Source of the DNA: Saprospiraceae bacterium
GTDB taxonomy: Bacteria > Bacteroidota > Bacteroidia > Chitinophagales > Saprospiraceae
Assembly (NCBI GenBank): GCA_041392805.1
Contig: JAWKLJ010000001.1
Span: 4,843,101-4,907,100 of the forward strand
DNA length: 64,000 nucleotides
Reading direction: 5' to 3'
The notes under the pieces: model-generated
The model's input: only the letters and a program-made list of their open reading frames with translations
Databases searched by the model: none
Told to the model about the DNA's origin: nothing
Part shown: positions 815-23,495 of the stretch, one piece after another
Layout: every line of letters starts with the position of its first letter
How positions within the stretch are numbered: position 1 is the first letter of the stretch
Translations under genes and position numbers: made by a program

Positions 815-1750
815 TTAAAACTTCTTGTTCGGAATCTTTAAAACATAAGTTTTATGCGCAGCATTGGTTAGGCTGGTACTACGCAACCAAGGATTATAGA
901 CCTTTAGCGCACGGTAGCTAATACCGTTTTTACGGGCAAAATCACCCAGATTGGGGATGGGGCCATCTACCTCTACCGTACTAAAGTCTGTCATTGGTTC
1001 GTATCCTTCGTCATTATCGAGATAGAACCCAAAGCGCTCTGGGTTGCCAATGACTTCTTTGATCGCAATGACGCGAAAGACATAACGATCGGTTTCGTCA
1101 TTGAGGTTAAGGTCATAATAACGCTCTCCTCGCTGCACATCCATTTCTTTTTTCAGTCTGGGGCCTCCCATATTATAAGCTGCCGCAGAAAGGGTCCAAC
1201 TACCAAATTGTTTGTAATAATTTTTAATATATTTCGCAGCAGCATGGGTAGACTTTTCGAGGTGATAACGTTCATCAACTTCGCTATTGACTTCCAGACC
1301 ATAATAAACGGCTGTTTCTTTCATGAACTGCCAAAGGCCTTTGGCGCCAGCGGAGGAAGTCGCATTGCGCAGGTTACTCTCTGCTATGGCCAGGTATTTG
1401 AAGTCGTCGGGTACACCTTCCTCTGCCAAGATTTTCTCAATAATAGGGAAGTATTTATAGGTATTCTTAATGTTGAGTAAAGTGGTAGAATGCCAATAAG
1501 TATTGACGGATAATTCCCTGTCCATTCGTTCGTAAACATCAGGGTTTTCCATTGGGACTTGTTCGCCTGCCAATGAAAACTTTTTATCTAAATCCATTGC
1601 CCTGATCACCTGAGGAATTTTTGCACTTTCGGTGGTAGCAGCAATGGCAGTAGTTGACTGGTCTTCTTTTTTGTTGCCATAGGAAGCAAAGACTACAATG
1701 GTCAGAAAAGAGGCGAGTAGGAGGGTGTAATTTTGCAAAGCCTTTTGCAT
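815..1750 (-). CDS. Membrane-bound lytic murein transglycosylase (SLT domain) with a C-terminal LysM-like module
   Basis: N-terminal signal/transmembrane segment. SLT-domain motifs GLWQFM...AYNMGG. The C-terminal segment GDFARKNGISYRALKVYNPWL...YVLKIP resembles LysM. Confidence 0.85.
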   Translation of the reverse strand: MQKALQNYTLLLASFLTIVVFASYGNKKEDQSTTAIAATTESAKIPQVIRAMDLDKKFSLAGEQVPMENPDVYERMDRELSVNTYWHSTTLLNIKNTYKYFPIIEKILAEEGVPDDFKYLAIAESNLRNATSSAGAKGLWQFMKETAVYYGLEVNSEVDERYHLEKSTHAAAKYIKNYYKQFGSWTLSAAAYNMGGPRLKKEMDVQRGERYYDLNLNDETDRYVFRVIAIKEVIGNPERFGFYLDNDEGYEPMTDFSTVEVDGPIPNLGDFARKNGISYRALKVYNPWLRSTSLTNAAHKTYVLKIPNKKF

Positions 1751-1988
1751 GGTTTACTATGTTTACAGGATTATTAAACGAAATCTAGTGTTGTTATATG
1801 GACAACAAGATACGCATATCCGCTTAATTTTTCAATCCTGTTTAATTCTCTGGCAATTTTGTGGGTAAGCAATGAATAGAAGCTACTGTATCTTTAAGGG
1901 ATTCTGCTTCTGCTTTAACCAGTAAAAATTGCCAAAGAAGAAAATCATCAGAGAACTTCCTCTTTAAGGTGCACGTTTTTTGTCTTTG

Positions 1989-2396
1989 CTAGACTGACTC
2001 TCCAATAGCCCTCGCTTCTACATGGGTGACGTTTTTCTCATTCAAGTACATGAAAACGCGAAAAGCATTATTATCTGTCACTAGTAAACCAATTAAATAG
2101 CTGTCGCCAGCCTTAATTGCGTCCCCAATGTGCAATAACTTGAACCCTTGGACGGGATTGTTTTCAAAGAAAGCGGCAAGTTTGGCTTCTGCTTGTGTAG
2201 TAGTGAATACGCCATCTACATTTGGCAAAAATAACCTCACCTCTTTTGTCGGCGTGAAATGTTCAGCTATTGAGACGGCCTCTCCTTTATCCCAGCCTTT
2301 GACAACAGCTTCTAAATCATTAGGTTTGGGCCAAAACAAGATGGCTAAACCTGCAAATAACAAACCGATAATACCGGTTGTGATAACCTGTCTCAT
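1989..2396 (-). CDS. Hypothetical secreted/membrane-anchored protein (DUF4783-like)
   Basis: 135-aa ORF with an N-terminal transmembrane segment or signal peptide. Resembles small conserved Bacteroidota proteins of unknown function. Confidence 0.55.
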   Translation of the reverse strand: MRQVITTGIIGLLFAGLAILFWPKPNDLEAVVKGWDKGEAVSIAEHFTPTKEVRLFLPNVDGVFTTTQAEAKLAAFFENNPVQGFKLLHIGDAIKAGDSYLIGLLVTDNNAFRVFMYLNEKNVTHVEARAIGESV

Positions 2397-2528
2397 TTCA
2401 TAAATATTTGGTGAATAATTAGATAAGCTTTCTTACCCATCGTATCCCAAGTTATTCCCAAATAAGTAGGTTTGAAATGAATTTGGTCAATTCCTTGAAT
2501 GATAATCGTCACTCTTCCTTGCAAAAGA

Positions 2529-3116
2529 TTAAGTTTGCAAGCTTAGAATATTTCCCATGTGATAGCAAGTGCGACAGCGAGCCTCGTATCGATCTTTTTC
2601 GCCCAGCACAACCGTATTTTCATCGGCAGTTAAACGATAAGAATGCGTAGCCAGGTTACCGCAATGTTGGCAAATAGCATGTACCTTGGTAATGTATTCA
2701 GCCACGGCAAGCAAGTTTGGGATGGGGCCAAATGGCCGCCCTTTAAAATCCATGTCCAATCCTGCAATGATGATCCTAATTCCTCGCAAAGCTAGTTTTT
2801 GGCAATTTTCAGTTAGGTCTAAATCAAAAAACTGCGCTTCGTCTATGCCCACCACATTGACACCATCTGTCAATTCCAATAATTTAGATGAATGAGAAAT
2901 TGGTGTCGATAAAATAAAATTGGCATCATGAGATACAACTTTAGCATCATCATAACGTTTATCTACCGCGGGTTTGAATATTTCGACCTTTTGATTGGCA
3001 ATTTTGGCTCGTTTCAAACGTCGAATTAATTCCTCTGTTTTTCCGGAAAACATGGATCCACAGACCACTTCGATCCATCCACTTCGTTGGCCTTTAAAAT
3101 GAGGTTCTAAAAACAT
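2529..3116 (-). CDS. tdk: Thymidine kinase
   Basis: P-loop [14 protein letters not shown] and a C-terminal zinc-ribbon (CQHCG...CRTCYH). The length (195 aa) is typical of tdk. Confidence 0.92.
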
Positions 3117-3127
3117 ACCTAATATAT

Positions 3128-3997
3128 TTGTATTTGCAGTTTGAAAAGATAAACAAGAAGTCTAACTTTGGAAGCTTTAAAATTAAATTATTTCAAATTT
3201 TTCCCCGGCATTGTCCGAAAACAATTAATATGAACTTGCAACAAGCTAAAATCCTGCTCGAAAAGATAAACTCTTTGTACAAAAGTATCAGCATGGACGA
3301 AGGAGAAATGGCCTCTATCGAAAGAGACCTCATGCTAAGCTATATTCGCCAATTGTATGAAACCTTTCGGCAATTGAACCCCGAAGAGGGCTTGAATAGA
3401 GATAACAACCAAGCTGCAAAGGTAAAGCAAAATCCGAATTTGGAAATTACAAATGAAGCTGCCATTATACCTCCTGTTCGCAAGTACACGCCACCAAAGA
3501 TTATAGAAATCCCTGATACTCCGAAAGAGTCACCCGCACCACTAAGGAAGGAGACACCTCTCCCACCGGTAGCAGCAGCCCCCACACCTGTTCCAGCCCC
3601 TGCGGTACAAATGCCTCCACCTCCACCAATTGATACCCCAGCCCCCAGTCCCAAACCTGCTCCTGCAAGCAAGTCAACCCGTTCCATTAATCCAAAGGTT
3701 AAAGCGCTTTTCGTCTATAAAGAGGCCAAAGAATTATCGGAAAAGCTCAGCTCACAGCCGATCAAAGATCTCACTCGCTCCATGGCCATTAATGACCGCT
3801 TGCTTTACGAAAATGATTTGTTTAACAAAAGTAAAGATGCGCTAAATGAGGCCCTCAAACAATTGAATAGTCTATCGAGTATGGATGAAGCACAGCCATT
3901 GTTAGAGGATTTTGCCTTAGAAAACGATTGGGTAAATGAAGAAAAAGCGGATACCGCTATTGCATTTATTAAATTGGTTCGAAGGCGCTATTTGTAA
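3128..3997 (+). CDS. Hypothetical protein with a proline-rich linker
   Basis: 289-aa ORF. Central region is low-complexity Pro/Ala ([35 protein letters not shown]). The true start may be the internal Met at about 3232 ([10 protein letters not shown]). Confidence 0.5.
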
Positions 3998-4098
3998 AGT
4001 GGAACCTTGACCTTTGTCGATAAATTTGTGTTCCACTAAACCAGTCACTTGCATAAATGGTTGAATAAACATAACTTATTTTTTCATTACAGTGGCTT

Positions 4099-4806
4099 AT
4101 GGGTACCAATAAGATTTCAGATAGATTAATTGACAGTTTGAGTCTACCTTTTAAAATGGTGGCTACCTTATGGGGTATCCAGGTTTTTCAGTGGCTTTTA
4201 GGACTGAAATTGGGCTTTTTAGGGGTATTCCCGCAGAAAATATTCGGCCTCAAAGGCATTCTTTTTTCTCCGCTAATTCATGGTGATTTCGGGCATTTAC
4301 TGTCCAATACTCCTCCCTTATTTGTACTCAGTGCCCTCATTTTGTTTTTTTATAAGAAAGTAGCGATTCGTTCTTTTGCAATGATCTATTTCCTGACAGG
4401 CCTGGCGGTATGGTTATTTGGACGCCCTGTTTTCCATATCGGGGCAAGTGGAGTGATCTATGGACTAGTTGCCTTCGTTTTTTGGAGTGGCATTTTTCGC
4501 CGTAATTTCAAGTCTATTGCACTGGCCTTGCTTGTTGTATTTTACTATGGATCTATGGTCCTCGGTGTGCTCCCCGGACAAGAAGGCATCAGCTGGGAAA
4601 GTCATTTGTTGGGTGGCCTAGTTGGTATTTTTGTCGCCTGGTGGTATAAAGAAACAATCGAAAAAGACGAAGAACGAGAAACCTATTCCTGGGAGGCAGA
4701 ACCTGAACTTCCACCACGCCCCTTCTTTGAGCATGATTTGTTTGAAAAGACCAAAGCTGAGCGCGAGAAAGAACAACAAGCGCAAAACAGGACCGACTGG
4801 TTTTAA
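4099..4806 (+). CDS. Rhomboid-family intramembrane serine protease
   Basis: Multiple transmembrane helices. GASGVIYGLVAF contains the GxSG catalytic-serine motif, and the conserved His sits in a later helix (SHLLGGLVG). Acidic C-terminal tail. Confidence 0.8.
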   Translation: MGTNKISDRLIDSLSLPFKMVATLWGIQVFQWLLGLKLGFLGVFPQKIFGLKGILFSPLIHGDFGHLLSNTPPLFVLSALILFFYKKVAIRSFAMIYFLTGLAVWLFGRPVFHIGASGVIYGLVAFVFWSGIFRRNFKSIALALLVVFYYGSMVLGVLPGQEGISWESHLLGGLVGIFVAWWYKETIEKDEERETYSWEAEPELPPRPFFEHDLFEKTKAEREKEQQAQNRTDWF

Positions 4807-5102
4807 ACAGTAATTTATTTATAAAATTATAAGACTTGTGTATACATTGAATAGCGGATTTAACTATTTTTGCTTTGAGATTTCTACCCTCACTCTCTGA
4901 ATTGCCATGTGCGGCAGTCATCCCCCTTTTTACAACGGAAAAGTATTTAGACTGAAATGATGCAGATCAATTCATCTGTTGCAACTAGTTGGCTTTCAAA
5001 GTAACTAATTGCTTGGTTTTGAGTATACCATTTCAGTATTATTTCACAGGACACTTGTGTAAAGGTGGTTGCAGTAGCTGTGAAGACACTAAGAAAAATC
5101 CC

Positions 5103-8000
5103 ATGACTTTAAAAAATAGAAGTATGTACAACAGACTTTTACTTAGCTTTATCCTGGTTGGCCTTTCCTTTTTTGCAAATGCTCAAATATTAGATACGGA
5201 CAACTATAGGACCTACGATGGGTCCTTTAATAATTTAAACCAAACCGATTGGGGAGCCGCAGGTAGCAATCTTTTGCGCCTGGTACCTGCCACTTTTGCT
5301 GATGGCATTAGTACGCCCACAGGCGAAAATAGGCCCAATCCGAGAACGATAAGCAATACCTTGTTTTCTCAAGAGAATCCCATAAATGATCCACTCAATT
5401 TGAGCGATTTTTGTTGGGTATTCGGCCAATTTATTGACCACGATTTGAGCATCACACCTGATGGGGCAGAACCTGCCTTCATTAAAGTCCCAACGGGTGA
5501 TCCCCATTTTGATCCGCTCTTTCAAGGCACAGCAGTGATCCCTATGCACCGTAGTGCATACGATCATCTGAGTGGTATAGGACCTGATAATCCGCGACAG
5601 CATCCCAATCTCATTACTGCCTTTATTGATGGGTCTGGTGTATATGGCTCTGATGAGCAACGTGCCAATTGGCTTCGAACTTTTACGGGAGGTAAGTTAA
5701 AAGTATCAACGGGTAATTTACTGCCTTTTAATACGGTGGATGGAGAATTCACGAGTGAGTTGGACGTTAATGCACCAGTCATGGATAATCCCACCCATAT
5801 TAGTGAAAAAATGTATGTTGCTGGTGATGTCAGGGCAAATGAAAACCCTTTACTGTTATCTTTCCACACCTTATTTGTTCGGGAACATAATCGTCTTTGT
5901 GATCAATTGATCGTAAAGCATCCCAATTGGACAGATGAGGAATTATATCAATATGCCAGAAAATTGGTAGGAGGTCTAATTCAATCTATTGTATTTGACG
6001 AATGGTTGCCAGCAATGGGCGTTGACCTGCCTGCCTACCAAGGCTATAATGAAACGGTGAATCCTCAACTTTCGAATGTGTTTACTGCTGCTGCTTTTCG
6101 CTTGGGGCATACCCTTTTGAATAGCACCCTCCGAAGAATTGGCAACGATGGAGAAGTCATTCCACAAGGAAATCTAGCACTTCAGGACGCTTTTTTCAAC
6201 ATATATGTTTTTTTAGAAACAGGAGACATTGATCCATTTTTTAAGGGGATGGCCACTCAAATCCAACAAAATATGGATCCGAAGTTGATCAATGATGTGC
6301 GCAATTTTCTATTTGGCCCTCCAGGAGCGGGAGGATTGGATTTGGCAGCGATCAATATCAATAGAGGCCGCGAGCGGGGATTGCCTGATTTTAATGGCGT
6401 TAGAGCAGCTTTAGGCCTTACACCATACGCTTTTTTCCAACAGATTAATTCGGATGCAGGTGTCTTTACCAGGCTGCTTTCTATGTATGCCGATATCCAT
6501 AATATAGATCCTTGGGTTGGGATGTTGGCAGAAAAGCCGATGCCTGGTGCATTGTTTGGCCAAACGATTATGACCATCATGAAACATCACTTTACAAACC
6601 TGAGAGATGGGGATCGGTTTTATTATTGGGTAGATCCTTTACTGTCTGATGCGGATAGAAATTGGATTAAAACGACGACCCTCCATGATGTTATCATGAA
6701 TAATACTGGTATTATTTTGATGCAGAACAATGTCTTTTCTGCTATGCCACATAGTGAAATTTGTGCAAGTATGACCGCAGATGTAGAAGGGATCGTTAGA
6801 ACAGAGTCGGGAGCACCTATTGCTAATGTTGCGCTTCAGCTTGGTTTATCAGAGCAGGAAGGCCTGAATTTTACAACTTCAGAAGAAGGTGATTTTTATT
6901 TCACGGATTTGTTTTCTTGTCAGGTAGAACAACTTTCTATCCATAAAGAAGATGGATTAACCAATGGCGTGTCTACCATAGACCTCATTCTTATCCAAAA
7001 ACATATTCTTGGATTAGGTGCCTTGCCAACAGCCTATAAGATGATTGCAGCGGATATCGATAGAAATGGAACGATTTCTACTATTGATCTTATCTTTTTA
7101 CGGCGTGCTATATTAGGAATCGATCATACATTCCCTAATAATACATCTTGGCGTTTTATAGCGGCTGATTACAATTTCCAAAACCCATCAAATCCATTGA
7201 TGGAAGCTATTCCAGAAATATATGATTTTGCTAGTGTTCCATCAGGGGTGTTAGCCTTGGATTTCATTGGTGTTAAAGTAGGAGATGTGAATGAAAGTGC
7301 CAAGACTACCTTCCAATCAACAGGAGAAGAGGCTCCTATCGCTTTAATGATAAATACAAATGACCAAACGCTTGAATTGGGGGAAGTCGTCCGCGTTCCC
7401 TTCCGATTAGGTAGTACCCAATCAGCTATCATTGGGTACCAGTTTAGTGTTGGGTTTGACGTTTCTAGCCTGGATTTATTAGCTGTTGATCTAGGCGATG
7501 TAGATCTTGATTTGGAAGGAAATTTTGGGACATTCAAAGAAAAAGGATTGCTGACCACTAGCTGGAATGATGAAACAGGGATAAAAGAGGGGATGGATTT
7601 ATTTTATTTGACCTTCAGCGTTAAAAAAGCGGGCCAATTAAGGGATTTGGTTGCCATCAATAGTGCGCTGACCCCTGCTTTGGCCTATGATAATCAAATG
7701 GAGGGAATGCAAGTGGCTTTGCAATTTAGTGAACAAGAAAAAGCCAACCAACTTTTTCAAAACAGGCCAAACCCCTTTAAAGAAACGACTGACATACCAT
7801 TTTATATAGCTAATAGTGGCGAAGTGCATTTGCGCGTATTTGATGTGGCGGGTCGTATGTTGTACCAGCAATCTGCATTTATGGATGCAGGTGAGCACCA
7901 ATGGAGCCTTAGTCGAACAGATTTACCTGCAGAAGGTATATTAGTGTATCAATTAGAGGTGGAAGATGATATTCTTACACGCCGGATGGTACTTGATTAG
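5103..8000 (+). CDS. Secreted animal-type haem peroxidase fused to an Ig-like / dockerin-like / cohesin-like cassette and a T9SS C-terminal sorting domain
   Basis: Signal peptide (MYNRLLLSFILVGLSFFANAQ). Distal-His motif FGQFIDHDL and proximal motif HTLFVREHNRL of the peroxidase-cyclooxygenase superfamily. Dockerin-like Ca-binding pair (...ADIDRNGTISTIDLIFLRRAILGI). Cohesin-like domain (GYQFSVGFDVSSLDLL). T9SS sorting domain (QNRPNPFKETTDIPFYIANSGEVHLRVFDVAGRMLYQQ). The ORF track starts at 4989; I placed the start at the Met at 5103 that precedes the signal peptide. Confidence 0.85.
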   Translation: MTLKNRSMYNRLLLSFILVGLSFFANAQILDTDNYRTYDGSFNNLNQTDWGAAGSNLLRLVPATFADGISTPTGENRPNPRTISNTLFSQENPINDPLNLSDFCWVFGQFIDHDLSITPDGAEPAFIKVPTGDPHFDPLFQGTAVIPMHRSAYDHLSGIGPDNPRQHPNLITAFIDGSGVYGSDEQRANWLRTFTGGKLKVSTGNLLPFNTVDGEFTSELDVNAPVMDNPTHISEKMYVAGDVRANENPLLLSFHTLFVREHNRLCDQLIVKHPNWTDEELYQYARKLVGGLIQSIVFDEWLPAMGVDLPAYQGYNETVNPQLSNVFTAAAFRLGHTLLNSTLRRIGNDGEVIPQGNLALQDAFFNIYVFLETGDIDPFFKGMATQIQQNMDPKLINDVRNFLFGPPGAGGLDLAAININRGRERGLPDFNGVRAALGLTPYAFFQQINSDAGVFTRLLSMYADIHNIDPWVGMLAEKPMPGALFGQTIMTIMKHHFTNLRDGDRFYYWVDPLLSDADRNWIKTTTLHDVIMNNTGIILMQNNVFSAMPHSEICASMTADVEGIVRTESGAPIANVALQLGLSEQEGLNFTTSEEGDFYFTDLFSCQVEQLSIHKEDGLTNGVSTIDLILIQKHILGLGALPTAYKMIAADIDRNGTISTIDLIFLRRAILGIDHTFPNNTSWRFIAADYNFQNPSNPLMEAIPEIYDFASVPSGVLALDFIGVKVGDVNESAKTTFQSTGEEAPIALMINTNDQTLELGEVVRVPFRLGSTQSAIIGYQFSVGFDVSSLDLLAVDLGDVDLDLEGNFGTFKEKGLLTTSWNDETGIKEGMDLFYLTFSVKKAGQLRDLVAINSALTPALAYDNQMEGMQVALQFSEQEKANQLFQNRPNPFKETTDIPFYIANSGEVHLRVFDVAGRMLYQQSAFMDAGEHQWSLSRTDLPAEGILVYQLEVEDDILTRRMVLD

Positions 8001-8397
8001 TTTTTTTTCTTCTCTGACAATTTTTGTCTGGTCTAAATGCGGAAATTGTCAGAGAACCCTCGTTTTATGCGTTGGCAGATAACTGAAAAATGCTCATATC
8101 TATAATAAATTTTTATATTTGCCTGAAAACGCTTAAATTTCCATGTATTTTGATCGCTTTTGTTTTCAAATATGGAAGTGAAGTTAGTCTTCTTGAAAAA
8201 AGTAAGCACTAAATCTACCAGTTTCATTTAAACATAAATATTCCATTGTCTATCGCTTTTTTTTGAGATAGACAAGGTTATTGTATAAAAGCAGAATGTC
8301 TACGTTATGTATTTTTTAACGTAGCATTCAGGCGGGTTTAAGTAGTAATACTTTGTACCTGGCGAGAATCCCATAACATATACAAATCATTGTTGTC

Positions 8398-9075
8398 ATG
8401 CAAATAATCAAAACCTTACTTGCGGACGACCACTACATTTTTATTGAAGGGCTGAAAACCGTATTAAATGAGGCCTTACAATATCAGATCAAAGTTATAG
8501 ATGTTGCTCGTAGTGGAGAAGAACTTATCCAAAAAGTAAAATCGGCAAGAGCTGACTTGGTCATCACAGGCCTAAATTTATCTGGTAAAGATGGCCTGGA
8601 TGTCATTGAGGTGGTGCGTCAAAGTAAGAATCCCATTAAGGTATTAGTACTCAGTGCCTATGATGATCCGAAGATCGTCAAAACCGCTTTTAAATTAGGT
8701 GCTGATGGATATATACTGAAATGCCAGCCTTTGGTCGAGTTGTACCAAGCAATACACGAAATTTTAATGGGGAATACCTACGTCGGAAAAGGAATCCATT
8801 TAAATGGCACGAATGGTAGCGGCCATGGTAGCCATGGAATTCACCAAGCTGTTTTTGATTTTGAAGATCGTTTTATCAAGAAATACAACCTGACTAAACG
8901 GGAGTTGGAGATTCTGGGCTTGATTAGCCAGGCACTAAACAATAAGGAGATAGCAAAAGAGCTATACATTAGTGACCAAACGGTGGGTGTTCATCGCAAA
9001 AATATTATGCGGAAGCTTGGGGTGAGCAATACGGCAGGTTTGATTAAGTTGGCCTATGACTATAGTTTGGTGTGA
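8398..9075 (+). CDS. LuxR/NarL-family response regulator (receiver plus LuxR helix-turn-helix); receiver appears to lack the phospho-acceptor Asp
   Basis: N-terminal receiver domain (LLADDH acidic pocket, GADGYILK lysine). C-terminal LuxR-type helix-turn-helix (LTKRELEILGLISQALNNKEIAKELYISDQTVGVHRKNIMRKLGV). The position aligned to the NarL phospho-Asp reads LVITG instead of LILLD. Confidence 0.85.
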   Translation: MQIIKTLLADDHYIFIEGLKTVLNEALQYQIKVIDVARSGEELIQKVKSARADLVITGLNLSGKDGLDVIEVVRQSKNPIKVLVLSAYDDPKIVKTAFKLGADGYILKCQPLVELYQAIHEILMGNTYVGKGIHLNGTNGSGHGSHGIHQAVFDFEDRFIKKYNLTKRELEILGLISQALNNKEIAKELYISDQTVGVHRKNIMRKLGVSNTAGLIKLAYDYSLV

Positions 9076-9756
9076 GGCCATAGCCTGCCTATAGAGGAAG
9101 GGTTGGAAAGTATTTTTGGCTAGTTTAATATGTTTTTCTTTAAGATACATCCAGATGCAAGTATTTTTTTTTGCTTTATATCATGCTGGTAATCAGACTT
9201 TTTAGCACACGGCGTAAAATAAATCTCAAAAATACCCCTTTTAGGGTATGAAGTAACCAGTTTTAAGTTTTATATTTGTATCGTCTTAGAAAGGACACGC
9301 TTCTTGTAAGTTTGACGACAATATACTTGAGAGATAGATTAAAACACATACCGAAAGTTTCGTTTGAAATGACTTATTCACATAGTAATGAGGAAGAGTT
9401 TTAAAAACTTATGATTAAAATTTTGGTATTTATATTTTTTATGTGTTACATTTGTGCTAGTAATTTTGACAAAATCAATCCCATGACTAAAAATTTACAC
9501 TCCTCAAATTACCCTTCATTTTCTATTTTTCCAGTTAGCATATCATTGTTCATCCCTATATCACATTAAGGAGTTTTCGCTATGATTTTATTCAAACACT
9601 AAGGTTTTGGATGAATCATTTTTGTCATGTGGACTAATCCCAATACCAAAGCTATCCTCCCTGCAAAACGATGTAGGGGTTTATTTGACAATTTTATTTT
9701 TAAGATTCGTTTCTAGTATAATTCGACCTAATTCTTGGATGTATCGGTTTTGATTT

Positions 9757-9930
9757 ACGACGACGACACAAACTTTTATCCGATCTCCAAATGAATATAT
9801 ATTAAGAAAAGACATTAAAAAATGTGCACTTTTCAGACGACGACAAACAGTATTTAGCACATTTTTTTAAAGATATAGTCTTAAATTATTGTGAATCTGC
9901 TTTACTTTTCAGCGCGTAGACGACGACACT
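9757..9930. repeat. Three direct copies of ACGACGACA(C/A) with conserved flanks, about 81 bp apart, in the gene-free region upstream of the giant adhesin gene
   Basis: Copies at about 9757-9770, 9836-9849 and 9918-9929. Flanks are related (aaaaaatgtgcacttttcagacgacgacaaac and gtatttagcacatttttttaaag). They lie in a 945-bp AT-rich, ORF-free interval (9076-10020). Confidence 0.5.
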
Positions 9931-10020
9931 TTTGCTGTCAAGGTAAAGTTCACAATGATTTGGACTGGTGTATCATAATCTTATTTCTTAACCTAATTCG
10001 TTTACGCAAATTGTAATCTT

Positions 10021-13000
10021 ATGGAAAAAACGAATTTTACATTTGTTCATCCTACACAATGGATGAAACTAGCCTTTTTGCTAGTTGCTACTTTGTGTTT
10101 TGGATTGACTCCAATTACTGGACAAGGGCAAGACGATGCCGATCCAGTTCCTGGCGAAGACATTTGTCTTCCTCCCGCTCTTACAATCACTGGCTGTGAT
10201 GAAGACGGTGCAACCCTAACTTGGTACTCCGTAAATGGAGATCACCATGAAGGTATCAATGACCACTGCTGGTTAATCAAAGTAACTGGTGCAGGACCTG
10301 TACATTTCGCCGGTGGTGGGATCATAGGTGTTGTTGTTGATTACTTAGGCGCTCAATTGCACAATGCTATCGTAGAAGTTGAAATCTGCGAAGGCGATGA
10401 TGCACTTACCATTGCTCCTGTTCCTGGCCATCCTGGCATTTATTCTGTTACTTACGATTTGAGCAGCAACCTCATTCAGCCTGGTACGGCTTATTGGGCT
10501 GCTGTTGCTGAAGTTTGTAACCGTATGCCTGTTTTAGGTAACAATTCTTCTTGGAACTTCCAAAGGGATCTTTTAGTGAACTACCACATCGGTGGACCTT
10601 TCGACACGGATGAAATTTTCGACGAATACCCTTGGGATGGTTACGAAGGTTACTTCAAAACTAAAGACTCTCAATTCACTGCTTCTAGTGATTACGAAAA
10701 AACCTCTTGTCCTGAAGAAACTAATGGATATGTAGAAGATGGTTGTATCGTAGTGACTATCGGCGATGGCGAATCTTGCTGGGGTTTGTACAACATCACT
10801 ATTGATGGTGATTTGATGCTTGTTGGTGGCGAAGAAGCTGTAGGTGCAGGAGAGTATACTTTCTGCGGTTACGGTGTAGGCCCACACGATGTAGACGTTG
10901 AACTCGTAAACGGTTGCAACCCTCCTACCAGAAGATTGGAAGCAGATGTAGTTATTCCTAATGGAATGGACATGGTTTCTCCTATTATTACAGTAGCTGA
11001 CTTCTTTGCTGGTACTTTGCTAGCTAACGAAGGTGGTGATGTAATTGCACTTGGTGACATGTTGATTCCTGAAGGTTCTTGCTCTATGAAGAGCTACTTC
11101 ATCGTTACTGGTGTTGACAACTGTGATGGCGAAATCTGTGATGGTGATGCAGTTACTGCTGAAGCTACAGACGGACCTGCTAACGTTGATCCAGGTACCC
11201 AAGTACAAGTTTATAACCAAGACCAGTATGTTGATACAGGTGAAGGTATTGTTCATTTGCAAGGTTGCGAATGGGTAGTTGAAATCAACTGGTCAGTTGG
11301 CGCATCTGAAGTAACTGTTTGTTTGGATGATGCAGAAGAAGCTGGTTTGTCAGCTCCTACTTGTGTAACAATTACTGCTAATGTGATTGATGCACAGGAT
11401 GCTCTTATTGATGCTCCTGCTGTAAATTATACAATTCCTGAATGCCAGGATCAAGTAACTGTTTTTTACAGCTTCCAAATCGATGATGGTTGTGATAACG
11501 ACATCGATTTTGATCAAGTATTTTTTGATGCATTTGCTTTTGGCGGTATCTCTTTAGATGCAATAACTGAGCTTAGCATTGAAAATGGTTACGCAGAAGT
11601 TATTTTAACTTTCGGAACAGATGGATTCCAAAATGATTTTATTGATGATGGTTTACTTCTTATTACCTATATTGATGATTTTGGTAATGTATATACTGCC
11701 CAACCATTCTTCAATTTATACAACTCCACTATTAACGCTGATCCAGTAATCACAACAACTGGTAACGCTTTCACAGCTTTAGCTTGTGAAGACGGTGGTG
11801 AAGTAGTACTAGGTGTTACTGTTACAGATGATTGCGAAGATGTATTGGACGACGTTAAAATCTCTGGTGATGGTTCTGGTGACCTTACAGCTGCTCCAGC
11901 AGTAAGAAACGGAACATCTGCATACTTCGAATTTTCTGGTACTTTGGCAGCTGACGAATATAGCTTTACATTCAAGTACCCAGGTGCTGGTGATGTAACA
12001 GTAGCCGTTGTAGTTTCTCAGGAAGATAACCACGCTCCTGGTGTGGATATGCCTGGTAACACAACTTTCACTATTCCATCTTGCCAAGATGATGTAACAG
12101 CAGTATGGTCTGTTCAAATTACCGATGATTGTGACGAAGCAATTGATCTTAGCGAAGTATGTATCACTGTAGGTGGTGGTGCTTGTATCGCTATTCCAAG
12201 TGCTAATGCTACTGTTGTTTCTACAGGAGAAGGCATGGCATTGATCGAATTGAACTACGATCTTACGCTTGCAGCTAATGGTGCAGCGTTTGCCGTTTCT
12301 TATACAGATGGTAGCGGTGCTACTACATCTAAAAGTTCTACTGTAAGTGTAAATGGTACGCCTGATGTTATCAAGCCAGTTATCGTTTACCCAACAGAAG
12401 CTATTACAAAAGTATTGGATCCATGTGGACCAAATACAACTGATATCAAATTCTCTGTATCTGCGATTGACAACTGTGCTGGTAATGTAGCTGTTTCTGT
12501 ATCAGCTCCTGGCCGTATAGCTATGTCTTCTGTACCTGAAGGTGATGCTGACAAGTGGACAATTACTTATGCTGCTAGCGCAACACCATACCAGATTACA
12601 TTGTCCGCTAATGATGGACACGGCAACACGACTACACAAACCATGTGGGTAAGTGTAACGCAAGCTCCTGCTCCTCCAGTGAACTTGGCTTGCCACACAG
12701 GCTTGCAAGCTCCTGTTGGTTACCAATGTGAAGTAGAACTAACTCCTGCTATGGTATTGGAAGGTTCTATGGGCTGTTTGACTCCTGCTGACATCGAAAT
12801 CGTTGTTAAAGGAAAACAAAGAGGCGCTGTATGGGCTAACTATACAGAAGGTACTGGTTTGCACCAATTTGATGTTTACATCAATGGCAATTACTTCTGT
12901 ACTGGTAATATTACTACTTATGACAACATTCCTCCATCTATCGAGTGCCCAGCTGATGATCCAGCTGATTACGTTTGCACTGATATTGATGAGTTGTTGG

Positions 13001-16000
13001 GTACATTAGAGTACACAGGTGCACCAAGTATTGGTGATAACTGTTCTGGTGCTACTTACGACTGGTACGAGGAAGTATTATATGGTGAAGACGAAGCTTG
13101 TGATGATTTACGAATTCGTCGTGTATTCACTGTAACTGACGGTGCTGGATTGAAAGCATCTTGCACACAGTATATCACTGTTCGCAAACCTACCTTGGCT
13201 GATGTTACTGGACCAGATGAATTGATTGAATTGAGCTGTGATGATGAATTCGAATATGATGCAAATGGCCACCCATCTCCACCAGAGACAGGCGGATACC
13301 CATATGTTACTACTATTTTCGATGATCACAACTTGGCACAAACATACTGCAACCTTGCAGCTACTTACTCAGATTCTGACTTGATCGAAATTTGCGAAGA
13401 TAGCTACAAATTTATCCGTACTTGGACAGTACTTGACTGGTGTCACCCAGGTCAGTATACAACCTATACTCAGTTGATCAAAGTAGGAGACTTTGACGAT
13501 CCAATCGTTACTGCTCCAACTGCTGACTACGACTGGGATGGTCACTTAGACATCTTGTCTTACTCTACAGGTCCATTCGATTGCTCTGGTGCATTCGAAG
13601 TACCAATGCCTGGTGTTACCGACAACTGCTCTGGCTGGACAGTAACCACTGAAATTCTGAAAGACGGAACAACTCCTGTATTGACTATCGCTCCAGGTGC
13701 CAACCGTTTCGTAAGTGGTATTCCAATGGGTTGCCATGCTTTCCGTTACTGGGTAACTGATGGTTGTGGAAACCAAACTGACATCACTGTACCTTTCATG
13801 GTAGAAGACAAAGTAGCTCCTGTAGCTGTTTGTGATGATGACTTAAACATCTCTATCGGTGGCCAAGGCTACGCTAGAGTATACGCTACTGATATCGACG
13901 AAGGATCTTGGGATAACTGTGGACCAATCCGCGTTGAAGTACGTCGTTTGTACAACGAAGATGCTGATTGTAACCCAATTACTTCTTACTTCAGCGAATG
14001 GGGTGAGTATGTAGACTTCAGCTGCTGCGATATCGGAGATGCTGTAAGAATCGAATTGCAAGTATGGGATGACCGCAACGGTGACGGTATTCCAGGTAAC
14101 ACAATTACTATCGTTAACTGTGATGGTCAGGAAGTTGTTGTAAAAGACAACAGCAACACTTGCTGGTTAGACGTAACAGTAGAGGATAAATTGAATCCAT
14201 ACTGTGTACCTCCTCACAACAAGACCATCACTTGTGATGCATTACCATACGACTTCGATCCTAGTGACATCGAATTGTTAGAGGACCTATTCGGTCAGGC
14301 TGACTACGCAGACAACTGCCCAGGTGCTTCTGTTGAAGAAAATGCACCAGTTATTACAATTGACGATTGTGGAACAGGAACGATCCTACGTTCTTTCACT
14401 GCTACAGATGCAGTAGGATTAACTTCTACTAACAGCTGCCAGCAGTTGATTACCATTACAGAAGTACACAACTACGAAATCCGCTTCCCAGCTGATGATT
14501 CAGCTGATTGTGGTGTAGCTGATCCTGATACGATTACTTTCAACGAGATTGGTTGTGACCTATTGGCCGTAAGTGTAGAAGATGAATTCTTCTCTGCTTC
14601 TGGCGATGAGTGCTACAAAATCTTCCGTACTTACCGAGTGATTAACTGGTGTGAGTATGATGGTGAAGCACCTCCAGTAGTTGTAAGCCGTGACGAAGAT
14701 TGTGATGGCAAACCTGGTGATGAAGCAGTTTGGGTACTACGTAGACCAAACGGTGCTGTTTACTTCGACCGTGATAACGTTGAGACTAACAACAACCCAC
14801 TTGCAGGTACTAAAGGCACATCTTGCGATGGCTTGACGAACCCTAAAGGTTACTGGATTGACAGCTACATTGATGCTAACGCAACACGTGATCCTATCAC
14901 TGGTCAGTTGGATAACAACTACACCAACGATAACATCCGTAACATTGATACAAGAGGATACTGGCAGTATACACAGGTCATCAAAGTTTACGACAGTGTT
15001 GACCCAGTTATTACTGTTGAGGCATACGATGCATTCCCATCTTTGGATAATGTAAACTGTGACGGATTAGTAACTATCAACTTCAAAGTTGAAGATGAGT
15101 GTACAAGAGAAGAAGGCTTGAAATTTGTTTGGTTGGATGCATTTATCAATGATGCTGACGGTGACGGAAACTTCACTCAAGCAGAATTTGTAAAAGATCA
15201 TGATGTAACAGCTCAAATCACTGGCGATGCTTCTGGTTACACTTACTCTGCAGAATTGCCACAAGGTACACACGCCTTATTGATCAAAGGATCAGATGGT
15301 TGTGGAAATGAGACAGTTGACCTGATTATCTTCGAAGTAGTAGATACTAAAGCACCAGCACCAGTTTGTATCAATGGTTTGGCAGTAGAATTAATGCCAA
15401 CTGAGCCAGGTACTGACGCTGATGGCGATGGTGACGAAGACAGAGCTGCAATGGCTATTTGGGCAAATGACTTTATCGCTAGCCCAATCTATGACTGTAA
15501 CGGTCAAGGCCCAGCAGTAGATGCAAACGGTAACGAATTGGTTACTGCTTACTCTATCAACTTGGTAGGCGCAGAACCTAACCGTGACTCTACAGGTATC
15601 GTATTAACTTGTGATAACGACGAAACAACTATCGTGGAAATCCACGCTTGGGATGAAGTTGGAAATCATGACTACTGCGAAACTTACGTTTTAGTACAAG
15701 ATTTGATGAACAGATGTGAAGGTGGTGAAGATGGTGCCATTGCTGGTAACATCAAAACTGAAGGTGGAGAAGGTGTTGCTGACGTTGAAGTTTCTTTAAG
15801 TGGCTTCATGAATTCAATTTACACTACTCAAAACGACGGTTACTACGTATTCCATAACCTTCCAGTGAACGACTACTCTGTAGCTCCTCAATTGGATGTG
15901 AACTACTTGAACGGTGTATCTACTTTTGACCTTGTATTGGTAAGCAAACACATCTTGGGCATCCAATTATTGGATTCTCCATACAAAATGATTGCTGCTG

Positions 16001-16941
16001 ACGCAAACAACAGTAAGAGTATCACTACACTTGATATGATCGAAACTCGTCGTAACATCTTGGGTATTACGAATGGCTTTACTAACAATACAAGCTGGCG
16101 CTTTATTGATGCTAACTATGTATTCCCATTCCCTAACAACCCATGGTATGAGCAAGTTCCTGAAATTAAATCTGTTAATGACCTTGTAGGTGAAATAGAG
16201 CTTAATTTCGTAGCTGTCAAAATATCTGATGTTAACGCAAGTGCACGACCAAACGGTTTAGTGAGCATCGACGATCGTAGCAATGGTTCTTTCGCATTCA
16301 ATGTTGAAGATATCGCTATGGTTGCTGGTAACACTTACAATGTTGACTTCACTGCTAAAGATATCGCTGCTATCGCAGGTTACCAAGGTACTTTCACTTT
16401 CGGTGAAGCTATCGAAATGGTAGATATCGTATACGGTGTCGCTAAAGAAGGAAACTTCGGTACTAACTTTGTTAACGAAGGAATGTTAACTACATCTTTC
16501 AACGACGAAGCATCTGCTGATGACGTTCTGTTTACTTTAGTAGTTCGCGCTAACCAAGACGCTTCATTGAGCGAACACCTTGGCTTGAGCTCTAGAGTTA
16601 CACCTTCTGAAGCTTACAACAACGACGGTGACAAACTTGATCTAGCGATCAACTTTAGCACAGGAAAAGTACAGTCTGTTGCTTTCGAATTGTACCAAAA
16701 CCAGCCAAACCCATTCCAGGGTGAAACTGTTATCGGTTACAACTTGCCAGAAGCAGCTCAAGTTACTTTCACTGTAAGTGATGTAGCTGGTAGAACACTC
16801 AGAACGATCCGCACTGAAGGTGCTAAAGGATATAACAATATCCTCATCAACAGCAAAGATCTTCCTGCAGCTGGTGTATTGTATTACACTGTTTCTACTG
16901 ACAATTACACTGCAACTAAGAAGATGATTATTGCTCAATAA
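10021..16941 (+). CDS. Giant (2306 aa) secreted HYR/Ig-repeat adhesin-like protein ending in an Ig-like / dockerin-like / cohesin-like cassette and a T9SS sorting domain
   Basis: Signal peptide (MKLAFLLVATLCFGLTPITGQG; alternative start at 10063). Many roughly 80-100-aa repeats ending in ...TVTD..G....C.Q.ITV / W.V.DWC-type HYR/Ig motifs. Strongly acidic, rich in Asp/Thr/Val. C-terminal dockerin-like pair (GVSTFDLVLVSKHILGI...ADANNSKSITTLDMIETRRNILGI), a cohesin-like domain, and a T9SS sorting domain (YQNQPNPFQGETVIGYNL...). Confidence 0.85.
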   Translation: MEKTNFTFVHPTQWMKLAFLLVATLCFGLTPITGQGQDDADPVPGEDICLPPALTITGCDEDGATLTWYSVNGDHHEGINDHCWLIKVTGAGPVHFAGGGIIGVVVDYLGAQLHNAIVEVEICEGDDALTIAPVPGHPGIYSVTYDLSSNLIQPGTAYWAAVAEVCNRMPVLGNNSSWNFQRDLLVNYHIGGPFDTDEIFDEYPWDGYEGYFKTKDSQFTASSDYEKTSCPEETNGYVEDGCIVVTIGDGESCWGLYNITIDGDLMLVGGEEAVGAGEYTFCGYGVGPHDVDVELVNGCNPPTRRLEADVVIPNGMDMVSPIITVADFFAGTLLANEGGDVIALGDMLIPEGSCSMKSYFIVTGVDNCDGEICDGDAVTAEATDGPANVDPGTQVQVYNQDQYVDTGEGIVHLQGCEWVVEINWSVGASEVTVCLDDAEEAGLSAPTCVTITANVIDAQDALIDAPAVNYTIPECQDQVTVFYSFQIDDGCDNDIDFDQVFFDAFAFGGISLDAITELSIENGYAEVILTFGTDGFQNDFIDDGLLLITYIDDFGNVYTAQPFFNLYNSTINADPVITTTGNAFTALACEDGGEVVLGVTVTDDCEDVLDDVKISGDGSGDLTAAPAVRNGTSAYFEFSGTLAADEYSFTFKYPGAGDVTVAVVVSQEDNHAPGVDMPGNTTFTIPSCQDDVTAVWSVQITDDCDEAIDLSEVCITVGGGACIAIPSANATVVSTGEGMALIELNYDLTLAANGAAFAVSYTDGSGATTSKSSTVSVNGTPDVIKPVIVYPTEAITKVLDPCGPNTTDIKFSVSAIDNCAGNVAVSVSAPGRIAMSSVPEGDADKWTITYAASATPYQITLSANDGHGNTTTQTMWVSVTQAPAPPVNLACHTGLQAPVGYQCEVELTPAMVLEGSMGCLTPADIEIVVKGKQRGAVWANYTEGTGLHQFDVYINGNYFCTGNITTYDNIPPSIECPADDPADYVCTDIDELLGTLEYTGAPSIGDNCSGATYDWYEEVLYGEDEACDDLRIRRVFTVTDGAGLKASCTQYITVRKPTLADVTGPDELIELSCDDEFEYDANGHPSPPETGGYPYVTTIFDDHNLAQTYCNLAATYSDSDLIEICEDSYKFIRTWTVLDWCHPGQYTTYTQLIKVGDFDDPIVTAPTADYDWDGHLDILSYSTGPFDCSGAFEVPMPGVTDNCSGWTVTTEILKDGTTPVLTIAPGANRFVSGIPMGCHAFRYWVTDGCGNQTDITVPFMVEDKVAPVAVCDDDLNISIGGQGYARVYATDIDEGSWDNCGPIRVEVRRLYNEDADCNPITSYFSEWGEYVDFSCCDIGDAVRIELQVWDDRNGDGIPGNTITIVNCDGQEVVVKDNSNTCWLDVTVEDKLNPYCVPPHNKTITCDALPYDFDPSDIELLEDLFGQADYADNCPGASVEENAPVITIDDCGTGTILRSFTATDAVGLTSTNSCQQLITITEVHNYEIRFPADDSADCGVADPDTITFNEIGCDLLAVSVEDEFFSASGDECYKIFRTYRVINWCEYDGEAPPVVVSRDEDCDGKPGDEAVWVLRRPNGAVYFDRDNVETNNNPLAGTKGTSCDGLTNPKGYWIDSYIDANATRDPITGQLDNNYTNDNIRNIDTRGYWQYTQVIKVYDSVDPVITVEAYDAFPSLDNVNCDGLVTINFKVEDECTREEGLKFVWLDAFINDADGDGNFTQAEFVKDHDVTAQITGDASGYTYSAELPQGTHALLIKGSDGCGNETVDLIIFEVVDTKAPAPVCINGLAVELMPTEPGTDADGDGDEDRAAMAIWANDFIASPIYDCNGQGPAVDANGNELVTAYSINLVGAEPNRDSTGIVLTCDNDETTIVEIHAWDEVGNHDYCETYVLVQDLMNRCEGGEDGAIAGNIKTEGGEGVADVEVSLSGFMNSIYTTQNDGYYVFHNLPVNDYSVAPQLDVNYLNGVSTFDLVLVSKHILGIQLLDSPYKMIAADANNSKSITTLDMIETRRNILGITNGFTNNTSWRFIDANYVFPFPNNPWYEQVPEIKSVNDLVGEIELNFVAVKISDVNASARPNGLVSIDDRSNGSFAFNVEDIAMVAGNTYNVDFTAKDIAAIAGYQGTFTFGEAIEMVDIVYGVAKEGNFGTNFVNEGMLTTSFNDEASADDVLFTLVVRANQDASLSEHLGLSSRVTPSEAYNNDGDKLDLAINFSTGKVQSVAFELYQNQPNPFQGETVIGYNLPEAAQVTFTVSDVAGRTLRTIRTEGAKGYNNILINSKDLPAAGVLYYTVSTDNYTATKKMIIAQ

Positions 16942-17090: not shown

Positions 17091-17897
17091 ATGAAACATG
17101 CAACTGGAATACTTTTCCTGCTGTGCCTCCTTTCTCTATTTTGTATTGTTCCTGTCTCAGGTCAGGTCTCTATTTTTCTCACTGACGCTACGGTTCAACC
17201 TGGAGAAACCTTTACCGTTCCGGTAAAAGCGGCCAATTACCAATCTATTCTTAGTACCCAGTTTTTTATACGCTGGGACCCTACAGTACTTTCTTTTAAG
17301 AATGTGGTTGATCTACATCCACCATTTGACTTTGTAGATCACTTCGGAGCATTGTCGGCCCAAACACAAGGTACCTTAGCCTTCGCATGGTTTGACACTG
17401 GCTCTCTAAGTGGCATTAATATTGAAAATGATTCTTCTTTGTTTTCCATTGAATTCACCGCCGTAGGAAGTTATGGCGAATATTCAAAAATTGAATTTTA
17501 TGAAGATCCTTCAGATGCATCCACTATTACAGAAATAGTCGATACTTCCTATAAAGCTATTCCTTATGAAGTAACTGATGCTACGATCTCTTTGGGCGAG
17601 ACAGTAAACACTCTCTTTAATTCTGCGCCTGATAAAATATTGATAAAACCGTGTTACCCCAATCCTTTCACCCATCATACAACTTTAAATTTCAAACTTA
17701 CACAAGCAACAACCATTCATCTAAACATCTTAGATTTACAAGGAAAAACAGTTTTTGAGGAACAAAGGTATTTTGGTAGTGGCCAACATCAGCTGACATT
17801 AGAAAAGGACGTCTTTAGTCAGCCAGGTATTTATTTCTACCATCTTACCTCACCTTCTTTCAAGGTGACTCAAAGACTTGTGTTTTTAGAGCAATAA
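17091..17897 (+). CDS. Small secreted protein with a single cohesin-like domain and a T9SS sorting domain
   Basis: Signal peptide. Cohesin-like beta-sandwich signature (QFFIRWDPTVLSF...GTLAFAWFDTG...FSIEFTAVG). C-terminal sorting domain (KPCYPNPFTHHTTLNFKLTQATTIHLNILDLQGKTVFEE). Confidence 0.75.
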   Translation: MKHATGILFLLCLLSLFCIVPVSGQVSIFLTDATVQPGETFTVPVKAANYQSILSTQFFIRWDPTVLSFKNVVDLHPPFDFVDHFGALSAQTQGTLAFAWFDTGSLSGINIENDSSLFSIEFTAVGSYGEYSKIEFYEDPSDASTITEIVDTSYKAIPYEVTDATISLGETVNTLFNSAPDKILIKPCYPNPFTHHTTLNFKLTQATTIHLNILDLQGKTVFEEQRYFGSGQHQLTLEKDVFSQPGIYFYHLTSPSFKVTQRLVFLEQ

Positions 17898-23400: not shown

Positions 23401-23495
23401 AGGTTTTATTGCCAGGTGGGTGGTTCTATTCACCTGGCAATACTTAAACCTCCGTTGCTTATAATATTATTTTCCCATGACTTCAACCGATTAAC

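Follow-up and report, generated by a model that had tools for sequence, protein, structure and literature searches.

Bacterial enzymes belonging to the peroxidase-cyclooxygenase superfamily of haem peroxidases are well established, and a crystal structure is available for one of them, CyanoPOX. Family 6 of this superfamily (in the classification of Zamocky) is called "peroxidockerins" after fusions of a peroxidase with a dockerin, with LspPOX as its studied example (PMC4420034). CyanoPOX, the "bacterial lactoperoxidase", oxidises iodide and aromatic compounds (PMC11776367), and oxidation of I- and SCN- is very efficient with the amoebal DdPoxA, whose role is antibacterial (PMC5787809). There is interest in bacterial lactoperoxidase-like enzymes that are robust and easy to express and could replace the mammalian ones (PMC11776367, PMC10204396). 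The current work concerns a gene that is annotated as a peroxidase in the genome of a Saprospiraceae bacterium (NCBI GenBank assembly GCA_041392805.1, contig JAWKLJ010000001.1). We analyzed a stretch of 64,000 nucleotides of this contig (positions 4,843,101 to 4,907,100 of the forward strand), which we call the window. The product of the gene combines a haem peroxidase domain with a C-terminal cassette that includes dockerin-like and cohesin modules and ends in a type IX secretion system (T9SS) sorting domain. To our knowledge, the bacterial lactoperoxidase-like enzymes characterised so far are cyanobacterial and planctomycete only.

We consider it likely that the product is a T9SS-exported, surface-associated and catalytically competent peroxidase that oxidises halides and pseudohalides, with probable docking through the cassette. 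The grounds for this reading are the domain identities, the intact catalytic residues, the predicted folds and the gene neighbourhood, which are what the analysis shows. Relative to the literature that we found, three things are new: the Bacteroidota T9SS context of the peroxidase, the recurrence of the beta-sandwich, dockerin, cohesin and C-terminal sorting domain (CTD) as one C-terminal unit, and the directional association of the gene with a response regulator and a PorP-anchored multi-cohesin scaffoldin. Neither a haem peroxidase of Saprospiraceae nor a cohesin-dockerin system linked to the T9SS is the subject of any paper that our literature search turned up.

Peroxidase domain and export signals

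The open reading frame (ORF) is uninterrupted from 4989 to 8000 on the forward strand, and translation from the ATG at 5103 gives a product of 965 amino acids (aa). All residue numbers are counted from this methionine. The NCBI gene model starts at 5124, seven codons downstream, and gives 958 aa. The protein is 100% identical to the NCBI record P0001, "MAG: peroxidase family protein [Saprospiraceae bacterium]" (MAG, metagenome-assembled genome). An earlier note on this DNA, made from the sequence alone, had described a haem peroxidase here, and both the translation and the NCBI record agree with it.

The same note assigned the N-terminal part of about 550 aa to the peroxidase-cyclooxygenase superfamily on the basis of three motifs. 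All of them are present in the translation (FGQFIDHDL at aa 107-115, RANENPLL at aa 244-251 and HTLFVREHNRL at aa 255-265), and the search with a hidden Markov model that it had proposed upholds the assignment. The Pfam family An_peroxidase (PF03098) matches aa 35-545 with 496.5 bits against a cut-off of 25; an E-value of 1.2e-148 over the full profile (positions 1-530 of 530) excludes a chance match. The ranking by score of the relatives with solved structures, LspPOX not being one of them, agrees with a possible placement in family 6. The best of these relatives is CyanoPOX of Cyanobacterium sp. TDX16 (PDB 8s6c; E=2.5e-140, 472 bits), followed by DdPoxA of Dictyostelium (family 6; PDB 6erc; E=2e-84, 287 bits), DUOX1 (family 7; PDB 7d3e; E about 1e-72, 249 bits), myeloperoxidase (MPO) and lactoperoxidase (LPO) of family 1 (several PDB entries; E about 1e-66, about 230 bits) and, far below, alpha-dioxygenase and the cyclooxygenases of family 4 (several PDB entries; E from 1e-27 to 1e-20, 74-98 bits).

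Residues of the haem cavity were mapped using the residue roles described for CyanoPOX (PMC11776367) and pairwise alignments. The distal triad consists of Gln109, His113 and Arg244 (Q77, H81 and R199 in CyanoPOX), which are also aligned with the MPO motifs. The proximal triad is His336, Asn418 and Arg421 (H294, N376 and R379), with Arg333 nearby. The residues that form ester bonds with the haem, Asp112 and Glu247, are both present, as are the ligands of the distal Ca2+, namely Asp114, Thr172, Phe174, Asp176 and Ser178 (D82, T140, W142, D144 and S146). Conservation was assessed in an alignment of 78 full-length homologues with 51-73% identity. Sixteen of the 18 sites checked, Asp112 and Glu247 among them, are invariant; the exceptions are two Ca2+ positions with the conservative substitutions T172S and F174Y. 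The catalytic His, Arg and Glu positions whose alignment the earlier note had recommended (distal His113 and Arg244, proximal His336, and Glu247) are therefore all in place and invariant. The position of the sulfonium Met of MPO is occupied by Asn248 in the peroxidase and in 78 of 78 homologues.

Judging from these residues, the domain is most likely a catalytically competent lactoperoxidase-like haem b peroxidase, and its predicted substrate class is that of the (pseudo)halide peroxidases similar to LPO and eosinophil peroxidase (EPO). Enzymes with two ester bonds, i.e., LspPOX, EPO and peroxidasin, oxidise bromide, and reasonable chloride oxidation is credited to MPO alone (PMC5787809). Because Asn248 stands in place of the sulfonium Met, the haem should be LPO/EPO-like and not MPO-like, and efficient chloride oxidation is not expected.

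Predicted export signals are found at both ends of the protein. The N-terminus, MTLKNRSMYNRLLLSFILVGLSFFANA followed by Q, looks like a Sec signal peptide as judged by eye: it has a basic n-region, a 13-residue hydrophobic core LLLSFILVGLSFF and a cleavage site between ANA and Q, and the N-terminal pattern MxRRxLL...AQ is common to the peroxidase homologues. At the extreme C-terminus the NCBIfam model TIGR04183, for the T9SS type-A sorting domain, matches aa 889-963 with 24.4 bits at a cut-off of 23; the Pfam counterpart of this sorting-domain model is sub-threshold here. Inspection and the NCBIfam match thus support both export signals that had been predicted earlier. The window also contains a PorP/SprF gene, and CTDs of type A or type B occur in five more of its proteins. 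None of the T9SS core genes SprA/Sov, PorKLMN and PorU/V lies within the window, which is the only part of the genome examined.

C-terminal cassette

The C-terminal part of the protein (aa 548-965) was modelled with AlphaFold2 from an 80-row alignment. The mean predicted local distance difference test score (pLDDT) of the model is 92.8 and its predicted template modelling score (pTM) is 0.79. The first module is a beta-sandwich, whose PF13620 match (aa 561-604, E=1.4e-4) is below the gathering score; its strands occupy model residues 11-67 with pLDDT above 90, and Cys554 and Cys606 are invariant among homologues. The dockerin-like module follows, with helices at model residues 78-89, 97-103 and 113-123. 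A dockerin is built from two copies of a 22-residue segment, each with a 12-residue Ca2+ loop and a helix. The second of the Ca2+ loops is canonical here (D651-I-D-R-N-G-T-I-S-T-I-D662, with D651, D653, N655 and D662), as are both helices; the Pfam alignment of the dockerin begins at profile position 10. The next segment is rich in strands, which are short in the model, and contains the invariant residues W683, R684, F692, K725 and D728. Pfam Cohesin then matches aa 750-855 with 28.1 bits at a gathering score of 24.1, and this module has the beta-sandwich fold of cohesins.

Copies of the cassette, each of about 410 aa, are present in three otherwise unrelated proteins of the window, namely the peroxidase and two more encoded within 25 kb of it. 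The copies are 36-37% identical and share one order of modules: beta-sandwich, dockerin-like module, FPNNTSWRF...VKVGDVN segment, cohesin, type-A CTD. A profile built from the three copies matches the solved dockerins 4uyq_B (ScaB of A. cellulolyticus; E=1.1e-5) and 4dh2_B (E=1.6e-3), and solved cohesins more weakly. In the paralogous cassette of ORF 25716..29675 the Dockerin_1 match reaches 24.4 bits, which is above the cut-off. The dockerin/cohesin-like cassette suggested by the earlier note was thus recovered, the cohesin above its threshold and the dockerin by the profile match; according to sequence and model, its modules are real and the dockerin is atypical.

The cassette is not restricted to this locus. 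Among 1.84 billion cluster representatives searched, 7,122 proteins match the three-cassette profile at E<=1e-30. In the best 150 of the 7,122 the whole cassette is located at the extreme C-terminus, with protein lengths from 397 to 5,918 aa. The named carriers are Phaeodactylibacter, Lewinella and other Saprospiraceae or Bacteroidota. There is no family name for the cassette as a unit, and it is known by separate weak domain matches. The possibility that it is specific to the peroxidase is rejected, since two more proteins of the window and thousands elsewhere carry it; on this distribution, the cassette is a generic surface-protein unit of Saprospirales.

We also scanned 18 cassette proteins with Pfam. 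Their N-terminal parts matched HYR or Big_13 or gave no match, and most of the proteins checked look like adhesins. A function of the cassette as a cellulosome-style enzyme tag is unsupported, as none of the 18 (0/18) has a recognisable catalytic domain. Going by these few proteins, the cassette would seem seldom to be attached to a recognisable enzyme.

Gene neighbourhood and rival explanations

The features of the gene and its neighbours are collected in Table 1.

Table 1 Positions in the window of the peroxidase gene, its modules and the neighbouring genes
Feature	Coordinates	Strand	Details or evidence
Whole peroxidase gene	5103..8000	+	965-aa pre-protein and stop codon (ORF list)
Predicted Sec signal peptide, aa 1-27	5103..5183	+	sequence inspection
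Haem peroxidase domain, aa 35-545	5205..6737	+	PF03098
Beta-sandwich module (CarboxypepD_reg-like), aa 557-615	6771..6947	+	PF13620, AlphaFold2 strands
Dockerin-like module, aa 616-672, three helices	6948..7118	+	PF00404, profile search, AlphaFold2
Conserved strand-rich segment, aa 673-737, FPNNTSWRF ... FIGVKVGDVN	7119..7313	+	invariant columns, AlphaFold2
Cohesin module, aa 747-877	7341..7733	+	
T9SS type-A CTD, aa 886-965, begins QNRPNPF	7758..7997	+	
Cassette copies	6765..7997, 15736..16938, 28431..29672	+	
LuxR/NarL-type response regulator	8398..9075	+	Response_reg, GerE
2306-aa acidic, Cys-rich surface protein, cassette at end	10021..16941	+	phmmer with peroxidase cassette E=1.2e-64, aa 1907-2304
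268-aa protein, one cohesin and type-A T9SS CTD	17091..17897	+	PF00963 E=1e-11, PF18962 E=8e-9
Scaffoldin-like 1823-aa protein	17929..23400	+	PF00963 190 bits in 5 stretches, SprB 148 bits in 8 stretches, CHU_C 76 bits
PorP/SprF-family outer-membrane protein	23496..24422	+	PF11751 E=1.4e-44
1319-aa HYR-domain protein, cassette at end	25716..29675	+	phmmer E=2.4e-74, aa 907-1317; HYR, Dockerin_1, Cohesin, Por_Secre_tail

A candidate multi-cohesin partner for a dockerin is encoded downstream of the peroxidase. The scaffoldin-like protein has five cohesins (aa 38-155, 186-297, 343-463, 494-615 and 639-739) with poly-Gly linkers between them, then eight SprB repeats and a type-B (CHU_C) T9SS CTD. 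By its domain content it looks like a cellulosome-style scaffoldin on a gliding-adhesin chassis, and by analogy the PorP/SprF protein encoded after it is the expected anchor partner of such a type-B CTD protein.

With one genome taken per species, a scan gave 80 loci. The full peroxidase-cassette architecture is confined to Saprospiraceae, Lewinellaceae, Phaeodactylibacter and MAGs with no label beyond Bacteroidota or Bacteroidetes (L005-L028), with P. xiamenensis KD52 (L009) as a cultured carrier. Other Saprospiraceae have peroxidases of 630-700 aa with a CTD only and no cassette, and Planctomycetes, cyanobacteria and others have the peroxidase domain at 44-48% identity. In a rough neighbour-joining tree the Saprospiraceae peroxidases form their own clade, apart from planctomycete and cyanobacterial sequences. 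Cassette-bearing and cassette-free forms interleave in this tree, a pattern that suggests that the cassette was gained or lost more than once.

Flanks were compared for 58 Saprospiraceae loci (390 kb downstream and 474 kb upstream of the peroxidase). In the downstream flanks the response regulator was counted 17 times, the scaffoldin 9 times, PorP 3 times and a cassette protein 6 times, in each case on the strand of the peroxidase; the last count leaves out a seventh match, in L005, which is the frameshifted tail of the peroxidase gene. No regulator orthologue, scaffoldin, PorP or cassette protein was found in the upstream flanks. The regulator, with same-strand downstream orthologues in 17 of the 58 loci and upstream ones in none, is the commonest conserved downstream neighbour. 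Of the 41 loci whose downstream sequence extends over at least 8 kb, 9 have a homologue of the scaffoldin no more than 10 kb downstream of the peroxidase. The orthologue of the 2306-aa protein keeps its position after peroxidase and regulator in L001, L002 and L005, homologues of the 268-aa protein directly precede the scaffoldin in L016 and L026, and PorP/SprF keeps its position after the scaffoldin in L030, L031 and L041. Cassette-free peroxidases of about 630-690 aa are located upstream of a scaffoldin in seven loci (L030, L031, L041, L042, L050, L058 and L080; the peroxidase is at about 10001-11900 in most of them), with the regulator in between in all of them except L080. The linkage spans several branches of the rough tree, with cassette-bearing and CTD-only peroxidases alike. 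Since the loci are phylogenetically related, these counts are not independent events.

Some observations on the surroundings of these genes are given for completeness. The first ~1900 aa of the 2306-aa protein have no Pfam match; the protein, which is predicted to be secreted, contains 15.8% D+E, 4.1% K+R and 3.0% Cys. The stretch 8001..10000 has an unusually low G+C content (0.345 compared with about 0.42 in the adjoining stretches). No convincing ORF was found in the gaps 8001..8397, 9076..10020 and 24423..25715, and Rfam and tRNA scans of the window gave no matches; this includes the 945-bp non-coding gap before the giant gene and the 1.3-kb gap after the PorP gene. A promoter and terminator scan of 4700..10100 gave counts no higher than in shuffled sequence, with a consensus unsuited to Bacteroidota, and for these reasons provides no operon evidence. 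Further along the window, a pair typical of Planctomycetes, PSCyt1/PSCyt2/PSD1 (DUF1549/DUF1553) and then DUF1501, occupies 49167..53397 of the forward strand, with a DUF7133/HEAT protein (46655..48772) upstream of it on the opposite strand. On the reverse strand, 62151..63368 encodes a highly charged 405-aa protein (15.3% D+E, 16.5% K+R) with a type-A T9SS CTD and a PGPRGPRGPRG repeat after the signal peptide. In other genomes, L028 has two tandem peroxidase genes (1138..4056 and 4140..6017), and the peroxidases of L021 (9905..14275) and P0010 (1473 aa) are about 1460 aa long, ~500 aa longer than the window protein.

For secretion, haem linkage, substrates, docking and physiological role we rely on what is established for the T9SS and for peroxidases, and the following course of events may be proposed. 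The signal peptide would direct Sec export to the periplasm, where the protein would fold and bind haem. The type-A sorting domain would then bring it to the T9SS translocon, after which the CTD would be cleaved and the enzyme kept on, or released from, the cell surface. Upon exposure to H2O2 the haem would probably become ester-linked to Asp112 and Glu247, and compound I would oxidise iodide and thiocyanate, and probably bromide as well, so that hypo(pseudo)halous acids are formed, as in the characterised bacterial and amoebal relatives. The cassette would probably hold the enzyme in a Ca2+-dependent network with other cassette proteins and/or with the five-cohesin PorP-anchored scaffoldin. 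The likely role of the enzyme would be to produce reactive halogen species at contact range for antagonism or antifouling in H2O2-rich habitats, and H2O2 removal would be a side effect of this reaction.

Several points weigh against such a docked, surface-associated haloperoxidase. Cargo with a type-A CTD can be anchored via the CTD pathway alone, so docking is unnecessary for surface retention. The first Ca2+ loop of the dockerin-like module is degenerate and has no D-x-D/N-x-D pattern, and the Dockerin_1 match (PF00404, aa 623-671) reaches 21.0 bits at a gathering score of 22.9. CTD-only paralogues or orthologues occupy the same neighbourhood, which makes the linkage to the scaffoldin independent of the peroxidase dockerin. 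In six diverged genomes (L003 at 13029..15053, L011, L013, L014, L016 and L025) a FadH-like FMN/FAD reductase of about 675 aa lies directly downstream of the peroxidase, in some of them followed by acyltransferase-like and asparaginase-like ORFs (read by eye); the reductase, with Oxidored_FMN and Pyr_redox_2 on record for L003, is of a housekeeping type. The window has none of these genes, and in it the regulator directly follows the peroxidase. With housekeeping-type genes between peroxidase and regulator, the array is no tight operon everywhere, and the synteny may be partly inherited rather than selected. We found no oxidase in the window that would generate H2O2, and no biochemical work on any Saprospiraceae haem peroxidase came up in the literature search. 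Finally, RbMPO of Rhodopirellula is reported to take Cl- as a substrate (PMC10204396), which makes the prediction of no chloride oxidation a soft one.

The explanation that competes best concerns the cassette, and we regard it as possible, though well short of probable. Cohesin and dockerin would dock nothing, and the part played by the cassette would be that of a rigid stalk or spacer, or else of a unit for secretion or quality control that often stands before type-A CTDs in Saprospirales; surface retention, if any, would depend only on the CTD pathway, and the enzymatic core would be compatible with this. The cassette indeed always directly precedes the CTD at the very C-terminus, in proteins from 397 to 5,918 aa long, and it travels as one unit, as a structural or secretory element would. 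The pTM over four modules suggests a fairly fixed arrangement, and the degenerate first loop and the cassette-free peroxidases of the same neighbourhood point the same way. Against this, the second loop and both helices are canonical and match solved cohesin-binding dockerins, and a scaffoldin of the classic multi-cohesin kind, its linkers flexible, is encoded in the region; for such a protein dockerin-bearing partners are expected.

A wider proposal, which would extend docking to the whole array, is attractive but doubtful. The peroxidase would be a conserved part of an undescribed T9SS-based cohesin-dockerin surface assembly, in which a PorP/SprF-anchored SprB-like scaffoldin would recruit cassette-bearing giant adhesins and the haloperoxidase through its five cohesins, under a dedicated LuxR-type regulator. 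The enzyme itself is ordinary, and the assembly is an unproven lead from gene order. If it exists, it would place an oxidative weapon or a matrix cross-linker on a filament at the surface, possibly a gliding one.

Cross-linking as the primary function, comparable to that of peroxidasin, ovoperoxidase and the cuticle peroxidases of nematodes, appears unlikely. The enzyme would use H2O2, directly or via hypobromous acid (HOBr), to join neighbouring giant surface proteins, so that a sheath, an adhesive layer or a filament on the surface becomes harder, and would not be aimed at other organisms. The directional linkage to giant proteins, scaffoldin and PorP, which persists when the peroxidase has no cassette, points to a shared process beyond simple docking. 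Both ester-bond residues, which are linked with bromide oxidation, are kept, and chemistry of this kind is known in the superfamily, where peroxidasin 1 releases HOBr that forms the sulfilimine links of collagen IV (PMC5377774). However, the Tyr content of the neighbouring proteins (2.4-4.2%) shows no enrichment that would have hinted at dityrosine, the nearest characterised relatives are antimicrobial or general peroxidases, and the housekeeping-type genes mentioned above interrupt the array in several genomes.

We would give a similarly low probability to a protective function, in which the enzyme is released in soluble form and clears environmental H2O2 (e.g., from algae or photochemistry), with halide oxidation incidental. 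Many T9SS type-A cargos are released. The relative RbMPO also has catalase activity (PMC10204396). Nevertheless, the ester-bond residues and the full halogenation-type distal pocket are kept in every homologue, which suggests selection on (pseudo)halide oxidation; H2O2 scavenging via hypohalous acids is not protective in itself, and a scavenger that diffuses freely would have no need of a 410-aa interaction cassette.

That the domain is a non-catalytic module for adhesion or scaffolding, or a fatty-acid dioxygenase of the cyclooxygenase branch, is highly improbable, and both candidates were rejected: although the superfamily includes dioxygenases and inactive members such as DUOX, whose mutated peroxidase domain no longer has peroxidase activity (PMC4420034), and although DUOX1 is the third-best PDB match, all catalytic and metal-binding residues checked in the window protein are present and either invariant or conservatively substituted, including the distal Gln, distal His and proximal His at which DUOX1 differs, and the dioxygenase-branch scores are far below those of CyanoPOX and of MPO and LPO, in addition to the LPO-type distal pocket.

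The preferred reading, i.e., a surface-associated (pseudo)halide peroxidase with probable docking, has wider consequences. The peroxidase belongs to a large Saprospiraceae clade with hundreds of close homologues and predicted T9SS export, and would offer a natural example of a surface-displayed haloperoxidase in bacteria that are frequent on algae as well as in seawater and activated sludge. If docking is true, cohesin-dockerin assembly would extend to T9SS-anchored Bacteroidota surfaces, and one would begin to account for a ~410-aa cassette with matches in over 7,000 protein clusters. If it is false, the annotation as a peroxidase family protein is still correct and the gene is of ordinary interest.

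Comparison with known systems

The closest described enzymes are those of family 6. The window protein resembles them in the fusion of a peroxidase with a dockerin-like module (aa 616-672), a likeness that refers to dockerin presence, the original domain order not being given in PMC4420034. LspPOX (Lyngbya sp. PCC 8106), CyanoPOX and RbMPO (Rhodopirellula baltica) share its fold and active site. For CyanoPOX the similarity (E=1e-140) extends over the whole domain of ~510 aa: the distal and proximal triads and the ester-bond residues are identical, and the distal Ca2+ site is shared, with W142 in CyanoPOX and Phe174 in the Saprospiraceae protein. However, the characterised bacterial enzymes of the family are cyanobacterial or planctomycete and were studied as single domains, whereas the window protein comes from Bacteroidota and has in addition a C-terminal beta-sandwich, dockerin, cohesin and T9SS CTD, with a scaffoldin array nearby. 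DdPoxA (6erc), a haem peroxidase that is secreted, also has these triads, and its antibacterial role is of the kind that we propose for the window protein. It differs in having Ile instead of the ester-bond Asp, and hence a single ester bond and poor bromide oxidation, while the window protein keeps Asp112; besides, DdPoxA is eukaryotic and glycosylated and lacks cohesin, dockerin and CTD modules.

LPO, EPO and MPO (family 1) are homologous over the whole domain (E about 1e-66), with the same catalytic, ester-bond and Ca2+ residues, but the similarity is much lower (about 230 bits versus 472 for CyanoPOX). Unlike these mammalian enzymes, the window protein has no propeptide and contains only 0.4% Cys.

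For the type-B CTD scaffoldin and its PorP/SprF neighbour, the SprB-SprF pair of Flavobacterium johnsoniae is a comparable combination of type-B cargo and anchor. In Aureispira, a member of Saprospiraceae, the grappling hooks GhpA-GhpB/C have type-B cargo followed by PorP/PorE homologues, which is the arrangement seen at 17929..24422 (bioRxiv 10.1101/2024.01.29.577165). SprB and GhpA are not reported with cohesins or a peroxidase, and neither word occurs in the GhpA paper (bioRxiv 10.1101/2024.01.29.577165).

The known cohesin-dockerin systems, cellulosomal and non-cellulosomal (CipA and OlpC of C. thermocellum, ScaB and ScaC of A. cellulolyticus), are found mainly in Firmicutes and use Sec export with SLH or sortase anchoring. 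The system suggested by the window differs from them in using T9SS type-A and type-B CTDs with PorP/SprF and in combining dockerin and cohesin within one cassette. Unlike in cellulosomes, the cargo of this cassette appears to be mostly adhesin-like and not made of glycoside hydrolases, and the putative docking would involve a dockerin whose first loop is degenerate.

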